A stretch of DNA of 64,000 bases from Perna viridis (lineage: Eukaryota). This document shows positions 46,736 through 51,145 of this stretch, in pieces. The stretch's first letter is position 1, and each line of letters starts with the position of its first letter. Made by a program: the position numbers and the translations under genes. The stretch spans positions 19,716,001 through 19,780,000 of the forward strand of contig CM074518.1 of the NCBI GenBank assembly GCA_037379345.1. Direction: 5' to 3'. Under the pieces are notes generated by a model. That model did no database searches. It saw only the letters and a list, made by a program, of their open reading frames with translations, and had not been told where the DNA came from.

Positions 46736-47375
46736 ACATTCAGTATCACCAACTTTGTTCTTATTTGATGCAATTGTCTTTTTCATCTTCAATCTAGTTT
46801 TTTTGCACATCACAACTAATACGTTACGTCGGAGCTAGCTGAAACAACGTTAACACGGCACCTTTTAACACAATACCTTTTGTGTCGTTTTTGACCCTTA
46901 CAATGAGGCTTCTGGGACAAGGGATATATTGCTACAAGATTAAAGATATCCCCAATTAAGTTTTATGGTTGTTATCATGAACTCGTGGTTCGTGTTGGTG
47001 TATTCATTTGCACTATGAAAAAGCAATTTGTTACCCTCTCATACTTTTCCTCTTCTCTTTCGTCTACCCCGGACGTGATATTTTGTTGAAGAATTCAGCC
47101 GATGTTTCTATAAAAGCAGAGAATAATTACCATACCGGTATACCTGGCTCATTCTCCAACTGTTTAGTGAAAGTCCATATTGCTCAATTATTTTTTTTCT
47201 CTATAAGTGCTATTTTGGTTTATAATTTCATGTTTTTTGTTGTTGTGTGTGTCTGTTTGCTGTGTTCAATTCTTGGATTATATTCGCTTTACTTCCGTTC
47301 AGATCTAAGGTTTTTTACGTCACATAATTTTGTTTTATGATTTGTGTTTTTTTTTATAGTTTCATCATGATCCCG
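46736..47375 (+). mobile_element. PLE-derived cassette copy 1 embedded in the telomere-like array
   Basis: CATTCAGTATCACCAACTTT...CACAACTAATACGTTACG (SQLIRY), AGGCTTCTGGGACAAGG and TCTACCCCGGACGTGA; homologous to 30184-30700. Confidence 0.85.
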
Positions 47376-48278
47376 TTATGTTAGGATTATGGTAATAGTC
47401 ATTGTTATGTTTGTTTTTTGTTTGAGTTAGATTTAGGATAAGGTTTAATGTTTAAGGTTAGTATTTAGGGTTAGGGCTAAAACTATACGTAAATCCTACC
47501 CCTAACCTTAACACTAACTCCAACGTTAACACTTAATCTAATGCCTAACCCTAACCCTAACCCGAAACCCTAATCCTTAGCCTAACCCTAACACAAACAA
47601 CAGCCACAAACCTCATCCCTAAACCTAACACTAACACTAACCCTAAACCCTAACTCTTAGCCTAACCCTTACCCTAACCCTAGCCCAAACCCATGTCTAA
47701 ACAGTAACCCTAATCTAAGACCTGAATTCTAAACCTTACCCTTACTCTAACCCTTACTCTATTCATAACACTAAACCACAACTCTTACCCTCAATCTTAC
47801 TCTAACCATAACACAAAACCCTAACCCTAACCCTAAACCATAGCCCTAAACCATAGCCCTAACCTTTACCTTAACCTTACCTTACATCTAAAACTAGCTT
47901 TATAAATAAAGCCTAACTTTAAACCTCAATTCTAACCGTAATCCTTATCCTCAACCCTAACCTAAAACCCTAACCCTAATCCTAACCCTAAAACCTAACC
48001 TTTAACCCTAACATTAACCTTTACCTAACCCCTAACCCTAAGCCCTAACCTTAACCGTAGCCCTAACCCTAATCCTAACACTAGACCTAAACCCTAACCG
48101 CATCCCTAATCCTAACCTTACCCCAAACACTAAACCCTTACCCTAAACCCTCAAACCTTACCTTAACCCTAACCCTTAACCAAACCCTAACCCTAAACCT
48201 AAACCCTTACCCTCAACACTTACCCTAACCCTAACCCAAAAACTACACCCTAACCATAACTATTACCCTAACCCTGAC
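47376..48278. repeat. Telomere-like array: G-rich 47376-47480, then C-rich 47492-48278
   Basis: TTAGGG to CCCTAA strand switch around TACGTA (47486-47491). Confidence 0.9.
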
Positions 48279-48986
48279 TTAACAAGATCGTGATGAAGTT
48301 ATCGTCAGACGTGTTACAATCGAACATTTAAATCTTAATGATTTAGAATGGACAAAATTTCGTTTACTATCGGCAAAGGAAGTGGAGGCCTTCATCCCAG
48401 GAAACTGAAATAAAAAACACAGATCATAAAACAAGACTATGTGACGAAAAAAAAACAAACTAGCATCTGAACGGAAGTAAAGCGAATATAATCCAAGGAT
48501 TTGACACGGCAAATAGACACACACAACAAAAAATCTGAAATATAAACCAAAATATCACTTACAGAGGAACATACTAATTGAGTAATACGGACTTCACTTA
48601 ACAGTTGGAGTATGAGCCAGGCACACCGGTATGGTAGTCATTTTCTGCTTTGATAAAGACACCCGCTGAGTTGCACAACAAAATGTTACGTCCGGGGTAG
48701 AGAAAGAGGGAAGGGAAAGTATGACACGGTAACAAATTGCCTTTCTATAGTGCAGATGGATACACCATAACAATTTACGAGTTCATAATAAGAATCATAA
48801 AACTTTAGTGGGGATTCCAGAAACCTTTATTGTAAAGGTCAAGAACGGCACAAAAGGTATCGTGTTAAAAGGTACCGTGTTACTTTAGTTTCAGCTATAT
48901 CCCACGTAACGTATTAGTTTTGATGTGGAAACACCATTCCAGATGCTAAAAGAACGTTGCTTCAAATAAGAAGAAAATATGGAATG
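48279..48986 (-). mobile_element. PLE-derived cassette copy 2 (inverted)
   Basis: Reverse complement aligns with copies 1 and 3, including the shared AACACGGTACCTTTT/AACACGATACCTTTT duplication. Confidence 0.85.
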
Positions 48987-50520
48987 TTAACCCTAACTTT
49001 AAAACTAACCATAAACCTTATATTAACCCATACCCTACATTTAACCTTAACGTTAAACCTAAACCTAAATTCTAACCCTAACACTTTATTTACTCTTACC
49101 CTAACCCTAACACCAACCCCAACTTTAACCCTTACCCTATAACTTAACCTATACCTAAACCCTAACCCTAACCGTAAGTGTAACCCTAACCCTTACCTTA
49201 ACCCTAACCCTAACCTTAAACATTATCCATGAACCTCAACCCAAACCTTATCTCTAACGCTAACACTTACCTTAACCCTAACCCTAAACCTAACCCTATA
49301 CCTAAACCCTTACCTTAAACCTATACCTAAATTTTAAACCTAACCCGTACTGTAACTCTCAACCCTAACCCTAGCCATTAACCATGAATACAAACCAAAA
49401 CCTTAACTCTGACTTTTACCCTAACCCTCATCCCAAACCTAAAACTACACCTAAAGCCTTACCTTAATCCTGAAATTAAATTCTAACCCTATCCCTAACC
49501 CTAACCCTGACACTGACACTAACCCTAACAATTACTCTAAGCCCTAACCCTGACCTAAATCTTAGCCTCTAAAACTAACCTCAACCCTAAACCTAAACAT
49601 AACCCTTGATCTTAACCTTAATGTTTAGGCTAAGATGAAGTGTTAAGGTTACGGTTACGGTGAGAGTTAAGAGTAAGGGTTAGAGTATTCTTGTTTTGGT
49701 TATTGTTTAGGGTTAAGGTTAACGTTTATGGCTACGGCATATGTTTAGGGTTGGGGTTAGTTTTAGAATTTAGGGAGTATGTATGGATTAGGGTTGTAGT
49801 TAGGGTTAGGGTTGTAGTTAGGGTTAGGGTTAAAATTAGGGTTAGGCTTCAGGTTAAGAGTTAAGGTTAGGGTTAGGGATAGGGTTAGGGTTAGTGTTAA
49901 AAATTAGGATTTTGTGTTAGGGGTAAAATAAGATTAAAGTGAAGATTAGAGTTATGGATAGGATTTGGGTTAGGGTTAGGGTTTAGGGTAAGGATTAAGG
50001 TTAGGGTTTGGGTTAGAGTTAAGCTTAATTTTTTTGTTTTAAAGTTACAATTAGGGATAGGGTTAGGTTTAAGGTTGAGGGTTGGGGGTTAGGATTAGTG
50101 TAAAAAATTAGGACTTTGTGTTAGGGGTAATGTAAGGTTAAAGTGAAAATTAGAGTTATGGATAGGGTTTGGGATTAGGGTTAGGGTTACGGTTAGGGTT
50201 AGAATTTAGGTTCAGGGTTAGAATTAGGGTTACGTTTGAGATTACGGTTAAGGGTAGCTTAAGGGTTATGGTTTGCGCCGGGTTTGTGTTGGGATTAGGG
50301 GTTAGGGTTAAAATTTAGATTTAGAGTTAGAATTAGGGTTACTGTTGAGGTAAGGGTTTTGTTAGTATTAGGTTTAGCTTAAAGGTTACTGTCTGGGTTG
50401 GGTTTTGTGTAAGGGTTAGTTTAAGGATGGGGGTTAGGGTTACGGTTGGGGTTAGGGTTAGAGTTAGGTTAGGGTTTGGATTTCGGGTTAGGTGTAAGGT
50501 TTGTTTTAGGTTAGGGTTCA
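48987..50520. repeat. Telomere-like array: C-rich to ~49620, then G-rich to 50520
   Basis: CCCTAA to TTAGGG switch at an imperfect palindrome (49605-49640). Confidence 0.9.
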
Positions 50521-51145
50521 CATTCAATATCACAAACTTTCTTCTCATCTGAAGCAATGCTCTTTTATTATCACAACTAATATTTTAGTTCGGAGCTAGC
50601 TGAAGCTACGGTAACACGGTACCTTTCAACACGACAAGTTTTGTGACGTGCTTGGCCCTTACAATGAGGCTTCTGGAACAAAGGTTATCTTGCTTCCAAA
50701 TTAAAGACATCCCCACAGAATCGTCATGGTGTATCCATCTGCACTATGAAAAAGCAATTTGTTTACTGTTTCATACTCTCCCTTCCCTCTTTTGTCTACC
50801 CCTGACGTGCCATATTTTTGAGCAACTCAGCTCGTGTTTCTATTAAAAAAAACAGAGGATAATTGCCTTACCGGTGTAGCTGACTCATGCGCCAAGTATT
50901 TAGTGAAGTCCTTATTGCTCAATTATTTTGTTTCTCTGAAAGCGATATTATGGTTTATATTTCATATTTTTTGTTGTGTGTGCCTATTTGCCGTGTCCAA
51001 TCATTGGATGTCATTCGCTTTACTTCCGTTCAGATCCTTGTTTTTTAAGTCACATAGTTTTATTTTATGATCTCTTTTTTATTTCAGTTTCCTAGGATAA
51101 AGTCCTCTTCTTCCTCTCCAAAAATTAAATGAAATTGTGTCCATT
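50521..51145 (+). mobile_element. PLE-derived cassette copy 3
   Basis: TTCAATATCACAAACTTT (FNITNF); LTMRLLEQ; shares the downstream ATTTCAGTTTCCT.GGAT...GTCCATT with copy 2. Confidence 0.85.

Follow-up and report, generated by a model that had tools for sequence, protein, structure and literature searches.

Nine dead Penelope-like fragments in a degenerate interstitial telomeric tract of Perna viridis: probable local duplication and a likely record of chromosome breaks

How did three pieces of one Penelope-like element (PLE) come to lie in alternating orientation among TTAGGG repeats in the interior of a chromosome? The initial annotation of the window, by which we mean the whole analysed stretch of 64,000 nucleotides, had read them as three cassettes of array, PLE fragment and array that descend from one ancestral junction and might be a composite subtelomeric or mobile repeat. 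We consider it likely that the locus is a record of past chromosome breaks rather than a new mobile element; that nine dead copies of a Naiad-like fragment were multiplied by local tandem and inverted duplication of the tract edge, not by retrotransposition, is a conclusion held here with good confidence. The three pieces, at 46733-47378 (+), 48990-48283 (-) and 50517-51145 (+), are homologous by BLAST (74-77% alike, E ~1e-121 to 1e-138). Several properties noted earlier were borne out: the +/-/+ order, the common 5' start, the PLE sense strand on the G-rich strand, the non-PLE DNA downstream of all three, the identical point at which copies 1 and 2 re-enter TTAGGG-like DNA, and a private tandem duplication of about 15 nt, which lies within a common 22-nt insertion and which the free copies at ~30300 and ~32500 lack. 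The letters of this duplication as first quoted are those of copy 2, with variants in copies 1 and 3. The third cassette did not stand, as copy 3 lacks a downstream array and stops within the downstream repeat at 51145, followed by other DNA. In copy 1 (c1; copies 2 and 3 are c2 and c3), the PLE part covers the 3' UTR and, before it, the final ~95 codons of the RT ORF. All features are collected in Table 1.

Table 1. Coordinates of the features discussed, counted from the first letter of the window.
Feature	Position	Strand	Basis
Free PLE 3' fragment, related family, outside the cassette clade	30186..30737	+	BLAST, tree
Second free PLE 3' fragment	32854-32302	-	BLAST, tree
Dispersed repeat, cut mid-element where the TTAGGG tract begins	36663..37122	.	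Telomere-addition polarity
9.6-kb tract of degenerate TTAGGG, expanded through internal duplication	37125..46732	+	TRF, 16-mers
Eight 24-nt stubs of the array-to-PLE junction, each returning to TTAGGG (38607, 38929, 39578, 41929, 42588, 44801, 45301, 46537)	38607..46560	+	46-nt junction probe, 4-7 mismatches
Copy 1 (c1), PLE fragment (dead, Naiad-like, 3' end)	46733..47310	+	Sequence comparison
Older low-copy repeat piece of c1, ~100-nt internal deletion, ends at J2	47311..47378	+	Alignment
J3, head-to-head TTAGGG/CCCTAA junction, with a short G-rich run	47379..47498	+	Genome-wide pattern
Degenerate array following copy 2, CCCTAA on the + strand	47495..48283	-	TRF, 16-mers
Copy 2 (c2)	48283..48990	-	PLE fragment 48990-48460, older repeat 48459-48283, J2
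CCCTAA arm, tail-to-tail junction J4 (~49600-49640), TTAGGG arm	48991..50516	.	TRF, J4 matches
Copy 3 (c3), PLE part as far as ~51040, then older repeat, truncated at 51145	50517..51145	+	Alignment

Judged by its sequence, the fragment represents the 3' end of a Naiad-like Penelope family that encodes a GIY-YIG endonuclease at the N-terminus. This architecture was scored on the free family, which the cassette copies match at 74-78% identity. The ORF of free copy L106 gave a Pfam GIY-YIG match of E 0.01 and 16.6 bits, below the 22.6 cut-off, and an IYG...YVGET motif with CxxC upstream was seen in L099, L106 and L110, while most translated free copies carry a CSC (CxC) linker motif between EN and RT. 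The RT is C-terminal (RVT_1 E 7e-4, below cut-off), the ORF stops shortly past the RT thumb, and a C-terminal EN is absent; Pfam found no domain in the 481-aa RT-side ORF of L081. The available text of PMC8557442 describes Naiads as having this same order of N-terminal GIY-YIG, CxC linker and C-terminal RT. The family is abundant in this genome and mostly 5'-truncated. It had been argued that the sense strand of the pieces runs opposite to the polarity expected of telomere-primed Athena/Terminon elements; the statement itself is correct, but it has no bearing on the present case because the closest free family has a GIY-YIG endonuclease and is not telomere-primed. As a side observation, three ORFs taken from a 7.5-kb TIR element yielded no transposase domain with Pfam.

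The contig (C8) measures 49.48 Mb and carries telomere arrays at both ends, and TTAGGG telomere arrays were present at 9 of the 15 left contig ends fetched as well as at the right end of C8. The locus, at 19.58-19.77 Mb, is internal, which contradicts the proposed subtelomeric repeat; TRF and position together identify a tract of the species' own telomere repeat away from chromosome ends, that is, an interstitial telomeric sequence (ITS). Nine cassette-clade copies were counted, three in the window and six about 160 kb upstream (cluster A: A1, A1b, A2-A5), all within 183 kb (C8:19584566-19767145) according to a DNA search and genome-wide pattern searches. The two clusters are separated by 145 kb and together hold ~28 kb of strongly degenerate TTAGGG in alternating orientation; perfect TTAGGG covers 13-31% of the 19 array segments measured. 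No copy was found at an unlinked site among the 40 of 4081 DNA-search candidates that were scored, a scope within which a very diverged outlier could be missed, or by the pattern searches, which count the whole genome with 1-2 mismatches tolerated; a single outside pattern match, on C10, had no flanking homology, and a control pattern gave 4 matches. Read runs X11, X12 and X14 (organisms B and C) are silent on the age of the locus because they match only through telomeric repeats, with zero or near-zero depth over the PLE part. In RNA run X16 (~19 in 100 reads sampled), 212 of 213 aligned reads fitted partially and 97% continued into unlike sequence, a pattern as expected of reads from other PLE copies.

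The tree supports descent of the copies from one ancestral junction. Compared with 41 free copies, all nine fall into a single clade (100/100) and are not interspersed among them, and each has the TTAGGG array upstream. Neither cluster is monophyletic (AU p 1.2e-5 and 9e-9): c2 is sister to A4 (97/97), c1 groups with A2, A3, A5 and A1b, and c3 takes a weakly fixed place at the base of the clade. The four oldest lineages, at 80-84% identity, split almost at once, and the younger copies stand at 88-95%. Stops and frameshifts are common to the cassette copies, and the founder was therefore already dead. The changes in common fall 15/10/17 by codon position, in addition to the 22-nt insertion, and over 71 codons comprise 9 synonymous, 24 non-synonymous and 3 to stop, against a neutral expectation of 0.29/0.67/0.04; the power of this codon test is modest, as older free copies used as a control (8/5/11) likewise show little third-position excess.

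The DNA downstream of the PLE fragment is an older low-copy repeat, common to the copies, which runs on intact for ~345 nt in the outermost copy A1. Other contigs hold three loci that match it at 64-67%. J2, the re-entry point identical in c1 and c2, occurs in 5 of 9 copies and marks a break later than the adjacency of this repeat and the PLE. J3 occurs four times in the genome, each time directly behind a cassette copy (c1, A2, A3, A5; control 0), and J4 was matched five times across the two clusters, four times over its full length and once in part. J2, J3 and J4 each recur in both clusters, and the larger array context was duplicated along with the PLE copies; in addition, 9-10% of rare 16-mers are common to the array downstream of c2 and the arrays that follow J3 in the upstream cluster. 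The array-to-PLE junction itself, searched genome-wide, gave 10 of 10 matches inside the two clusters (control 0); overall, the arrays contain nine of its 24-nt stubs. Within the 9.6-kb tract, perfect hexamers cover 17-23%, and its thirds have 15-30% of rare 16-mers in common; because of this internal duplication we rejected the tract as an old telomere preserved at its natural length. At its outer edge, the repeat cut at 37122 belongs to a family at least 1.5 kb long, whose 40 scored matches (73-79%, on many contigs) are scattered along chromosomes without gathering at ends, and five fetched copies continue ~1 kb past the cut point. The continuation was not found in the 364-kb region around the locus, and on this ground we rejected the idea that the tract had simply inserted into the repeat.

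Taken together, these data suggest the following course of events. At the outset, as the sequences show, a 5'-truncated PLE copy of ~530 nt, with the stops and frameshifts now common to its descendants, adjoined the older low-copy repeat. At a double-strand break, a TTAGGG tract may then have become attached to the 5' side of this copy, with a 2-nt TT in register, giving copy A1 with its natural flank still present. J2 would stem from another break, which cut the older repeat after ~150 nt and was followed by telomeric repeats in telomere-addition polarity. The structure comprising J3, J4 and the +/-/+ order could have arisen by fold-back or template switching in telomeric DNA, presumably in a near-simultaneous burst reflected in the four oldest lineages. 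Later duplications of 1-3 kb, together with deletions, evidently produced the younger copies and the stubs. Finally, and here we are more hesitant, a 159-kb inversion with one break within copy 3 possibly split one tract into the two clusters: c3 ends at c2 position 644, and cluster A has on its right edge an orphan tail piece (C8:19607973-19608023) that starts at 657, leaving a 12-nt gap. For a former join of the outer inversion flanks there is a weak hint, with anchored-alignment p values of 0.10, 0.023, 0.035 and 0.20 for four window sizes chosen post hoc; BLAST found no repeat common to these flanks.

The steps between founder and later duplications admit a more far-reaching version, to which we can give only tentative credence, namely that the locus is a fossil chromosome end, healed by telomerase and then fused, either by sister fusion with breakage-fusion-bridge cycles or between two ancestral chromosomes. 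It would refine the two joining events and the fold-back and keep the later duplications as they are. In line with it, two repeats cut mid-element (at 37122 and J2) pass into TTAGGG in telomere-addition polarity, the order c1-J2-short G-J3-C-J2-c2 forms an inverted pair about a head-to-head telomeric junction as in a sister fusion, and the four oldest lineages diverged almost together. However, neither the length of the tract nor the flank at 37122, a dispersed repeat not end-enriched in its scored matches, speaks for an old end, and repair of a single break also yields head-to-head telomeric stretches with inverted flank duplications, according to the accessible part of PMC7215372. The full chain of an ancient break, with two healed repeats, head-to-head fusion, fold-back duplication, tract expansion and the 159-kb inversion, possibly a mark of a mollusc chromosome fusion, is likewise put forward as a conjecture, with the balance of probability against it. 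Direct insertion of an endonuclease-bearing Naiad in or at the edge of a TTAGGG microsatellite by TPRT, the copies being one complex PLE insertion, seems improbable. Naiads are 5'-truncated, form partial tandems as well as inverted copies, and show a preference for microsatellites, (TA)n above all, as far as the available sections of PMC8557442 go; the fragment length falls within the free-copy range, and the founder may indeed have inserted at a tract edge. As the source of copy multiplication, such an insertion is contradicted, since copies made in one event would not have in common decay mutations absent from the active family, would not carry an unrelated downstream repeat and would not vary in age from 80% to 95% identity; moreover, at each of 21 free loci (L010-L030), 3.3 kb hold at most 2 exact telomere hexamers on either strand.

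A unit of TTAGGG, PLE and TTAGGG that moves as a whole, non-autonomously or as a subtelomeric repeat, would explain the single clade, the constant upstream array and the identical re-entry junction, yet we judge it very improbable: the copies stay within 183 kb, their founder was dead, their 5' or 3' ends are inconstant (A1, A1b, A3, A4, A5, c3), the array junctions were copied along, and the three true telomere boundaries observed have no PLE next to them. The mobile repeat suggested by the initial annotation is thereby not upheld. That the arrangement is a mis-assembly of repetitive reads is hardly credible. The region is repetitive, three N stretches lie inside the 9.6-kb tract, and no listed contig or long read spans the whole stretch, nor does a listed contig bridge the 5' junction of copy 2; against this, the copies differ by 5-20%, which collapse or false duplication does not produce, and short-read contigs from three studies, one of which may be the source of the assembly itself, bridge 7 of 8 junctions by at least 31 letters on each side, with allelic differences.

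We thus return to local duplication of a tract edge as the preferred reading. Most likely the tract is a neutral, rearrangement-prone scar with no function implied, and with the failure of the mobile-element reading the view of telomere use by Penelope-like elements remains unchanged. What the locus offers is a readable history: pure telomeric tracts are unalignable, and the passenger fragment together with four unique junctions lets the growth of a large ITS be put on a tree. Were the ancient-break reading true, the dead Naiad fragment would be a built-in clock ordering the events, and if synteny shows a fusion, the locus would be a sequence-level scar of fusion or breakage-fusion-bridge in an invertebrate germ line.

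Among known systems, the endonuclease-less, telomere-primed PLEs of the Athena/Coprina/Terminon group sit at chromosome ends, their cDNA extending the G-rich strand, and are further marked by hammerhead ribozymes beside reverse-complement telomeric repeats, and SART1-type insect non-LTR elements are telomeric-repeat-specific, targeted and multi-locus, with the sense strand on the G-rich strand. The present locus has the strand layout of SART1 but involves another element class, one founder and no sign of targeting in the 21 free loci. With Athena/Coprina/Terminon it has in common a PLE next to telomeric repeats (PMC8557442, in the portion available), and differs in its opposite polarity, interstitial position, endonuclease-bearing parent family and single founder. 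The source family is like the Naiad clade; the nine copies, however, are dead and were probably multiplied as DNA rather than by tandem or inverted insertion of their own. For bivalves, the accessible text of PMC3003622 reports interstitial telomeric sequence by FISH only, and within the titles and abstract openings covered we found no comparable bivalve or mollusc ITS-Penelope locus. Horse short ITS at double-strand breaks resemble it in telomeric repeats at breaks with nucleotides in register, and in inversions and inverted flank duplications, known at ITS, that give head-to-head telomeric stretches; in the sections available (PMC7215372) they measure tens to hundreds of bases and are young with known empty alleles, whereas the tract described here is kilobases long, old and re-amplified. 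Closest are the large degenerate ITS (het-ITS and fusion ITS, e.g. human 2q13), for which the available text of PMC6410037 describes internal degenerate TTAGGG blocks, a head-to-head junction, transposable-element flanks and amplification by unequal exchange or slippage. The head-to-head TTAGGG/CCCTAA junction typical of fusion ITS is present here in four copies (J3), a fusion origin being a candidate only. In contrast to these, a non-telomeric edge fragment was co-amplified, in alternating orientation and over ~28 kb in two clusters, and because it was amplified with the tract, the steps can be placed on a tree: the locus belongs to an ordinary class of feature, the degenerate interstitial telomeric tract, with an unusually legible history.

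The three homologous pieces of ~630–700 nt inside the degenerate TTAGGG tract of the window (copies c1, c2 and c3 of a 3' fragment of a Penelope-like element, PLE) are real and of one origin. They are part of an interstitial telomeric tract whose edge was amplified locally, and not of the composite mobile or subtelomeric repeat considered in the initial annotation. The pieces are 74–77% identical to one another in BLAST, and alignment with two free copies (PLE copies outside the clade described below) confirmed a common 5' start, a 22-nt insertion holding a tandem duplication, and common downstream DNA. 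The array–PLE–array arrangement proposed for all three holds for c1 and c2, which re-enter telomeric DNA at one and the same point (junction J2), but not for c3, which lacks a downstream array. Seven of eight junctions are bridged by short-read contigs from three studies, one of them possibly the origin of the assembly itself; allelic differences were seen, and no piece covers the entire stretch.

The window (C8:19716001–19780000) lies ~19.7 Mb into the 49.48-Mb contig CM074518.1 (C8), both ends of which carry telomere arrays, so that the locus is interstitial and the suggested subtelomeric location is not supported. A genome search with c2 gave 41 matches (40 of 4081 candidates scored), the nine best being c1–c3 and six copies (A1, A1b, A2–A5) in cluster A, ~160 kb upstream; these nine are the cassette copies. 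The other matches were one small cluster A piece and 31 free PLE copies, in which only ~300 nt match at 73–76%. Searching with only the downstream part yielded 11 matches (10/10 candidates), eight in the clusters and three short ones elsewhere. Whole-genome pattern searches placed in the two clusters 7/8 matches of the private duplication (control, 4; the eighth is without flanking homology), 10/10 of the junction stub (control, 0) and 4/4 of the head-to-head TTAGGG/CCCTAA junction J3 (control, 0). Two other interstitial telomeric stretches were seen on C1, one short and nearly perfect, the other ~1 kb and degenerate, with no PLE match in an 8-kb stretch around each. Of a ~510-nt repeat, probably SINE-like (81–93% identity), the 364-kb region contains a dozen or more copies that are nearly full-length, one ~290 nt past c3 and another ~1.3 kb past A1.

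Coordinates of the features discussed (w, window position; C1 and C8, contig position)
Feature	Location	Remark
TTAGGG tract	w 37125 to about 50518	strand switches at ~47490 and ~49620
c1	w 46733	+
c2	w 48990	-
c3	w 50517, ending at 51145	+
Older low-copy repeat in c2	w 48283-48459	
Older free fragments of same PLE family	w 30186-30737, 32302-32854, 33157-33461, 40-186, 61631-61847	outside cassette clade where tested
~510-nt repeat	w 25251-25760, 51430-51920	
24-nt stubs	w 38607-46560; C8:19603080-19603103	eight; one
Cluster A	C8:19584584-19605743	
7.57-kb element	C8:19592556-19600123	
Rearranged patch beside A4	C8:19601220-19601360	
Candidate inversion	C8:19608024-19767145	
Other telomeric stretches	C1:2024022-2024081, C1:51152611	

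In a tree of 50 rows (nine cassette copies plus free copies, 21 from other loci and 20 from the 364-kb region; free matches covering <250 nt of the reference left out), the cassette copies form one clade (100/100) against the 41 free copies, which bears out the claimed descent from one ancestral junction. Pairwise identity is 79.6–94.6% among them and 73.7–78.5% to the best free copy. Relative to the majority of free copies, the changes that they have in common number 15, 10 and 17 at codon positions 1, 2 and 3 (71 of 97 codons), in a test of modest power for which a control on older free copies gave 8/5/11. By class, synonymous changes number 9, non-synonymous ones 24 and those to stop 3, near the neutral expectation of 0.29/0.67/0.04; the copies further have three 1-nt indels in common, besides the 22-nt insertion. 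The founder was already dead, since the common stops and frameshifts hold despite the modest power of the codon test.

Free copies of the nearest PLE family show 87–96% mutual identity and are mostly 5'-truncated. Translation of the longer ones gives a GIY-YIG region at the N-terminus, a CxC linker and, at the C-terminus, an RT, with both Pfam matches below the cut-off (GIY-YIG, E 0.01; RVT_1, E 7e-4). The same domain order characterizes Naiads, described in the available text as carrying an endonuclease, being interspersed and favouring (TA)n (PMC8557442). Since the parent family is of this endonuclease-bearing type, the contrast with telomere-primed Athena polarity, drawn initially as an argument, does not apply. 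At each of 21 free PLE loci, either strand carries at most two exact telomere hexamers, and no PLE adjoins the three true telomere boundaries seen.

The DNA downstream of the PLE fragment is an older low-copy repeat of ~340–400 nt, found at three other loci (L058, L059, L061) with 64–67% identity to A1. In A1, the outermost copy of cluster A, it extends for ~345 nt, almost to its end, before ordinary flank begins; A1 thus seems to retain the ancestral context, and J2, which occurs in five of the nine cassette copies (A2, A3, A5, c1, c2) and one orphan piece, would be a later break ~150 nt into the repeat, followed by TTAGGG in telomere-addition polarity. The left edge of the window tract resembles J2, with a dispersed repeat interrupted in mid-element at 37122. 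That the locus is a healed-and-fused chromosome end strikes us as rather unlikely. Beside A4, a small rearranged patch combines part of the older repeat, letters resembling J3 and 41 nt of PLE in opposite orientation.

As to the local amplification, J3 is located after c1, A2, A3 and A5, J4, a tail-to-tail junction, recurs across both clusters (four full-length matches, one partial), and the post-J3 arrays of both clusters have 9–20% of rare 16-mers in common. The nine 24-nt PLE-junction stubs, eight of them in the window's 9.6-kb tract, are markers of internal duplication within arrays. Together, these recurrences point to 1–3-kb tract pieces as the duplicated units, which would have been copied in either orientation and would have carried the PLE along. 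On the tree, the copies do not group by cluster, monophyly being rejected for each of the two (AU p 1.2e-5 and 9e-9). The sister of c2 is A4, c1 groups with A2/A3/A5/A1b, and the basal branches are A1 and c3. c3 ends at c2 position 644 and an orphan tail that bounds cluster A on the right, in opposite orientation, starts at 657, the two being complementary halves with a 12-nt gap between them. Inverting 159 kb would reunite them in one continuous tract, and the splitting of one former tract would account for the mixing of clusters on the tree. Such an inversion is likely though unproven, the outer-flank check being weak (p 0.02–0.20). One cluster A TTAGGG array is interrupted by a 7.57-kb element (L038/L039), probably a DNA transposon, with short terminal inverted repeats, a 7-nt target-site duplication, several ORF pieces of 128–273 aa and only a weak Tudor_5 match in Pfam.

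A published account of a comparable locus was not found in the literature searched, which was covered in part. In the portions available, large interstitial telomeric blocks are described as rearrangement scars, often with transposable elements at their flanks, whose amplification proceeds through unequal exchange, conversion or slippage (PMC6410037). Telomeric repeats are also reported to insert at breaks with nucleotides in register, with inversions at 3/66 loci, one yielding head-to-head stretches (PMC7215372, in part). Among mussels, the text available describes interstitial FISH signals in one and presumably a second (PMC3003622).
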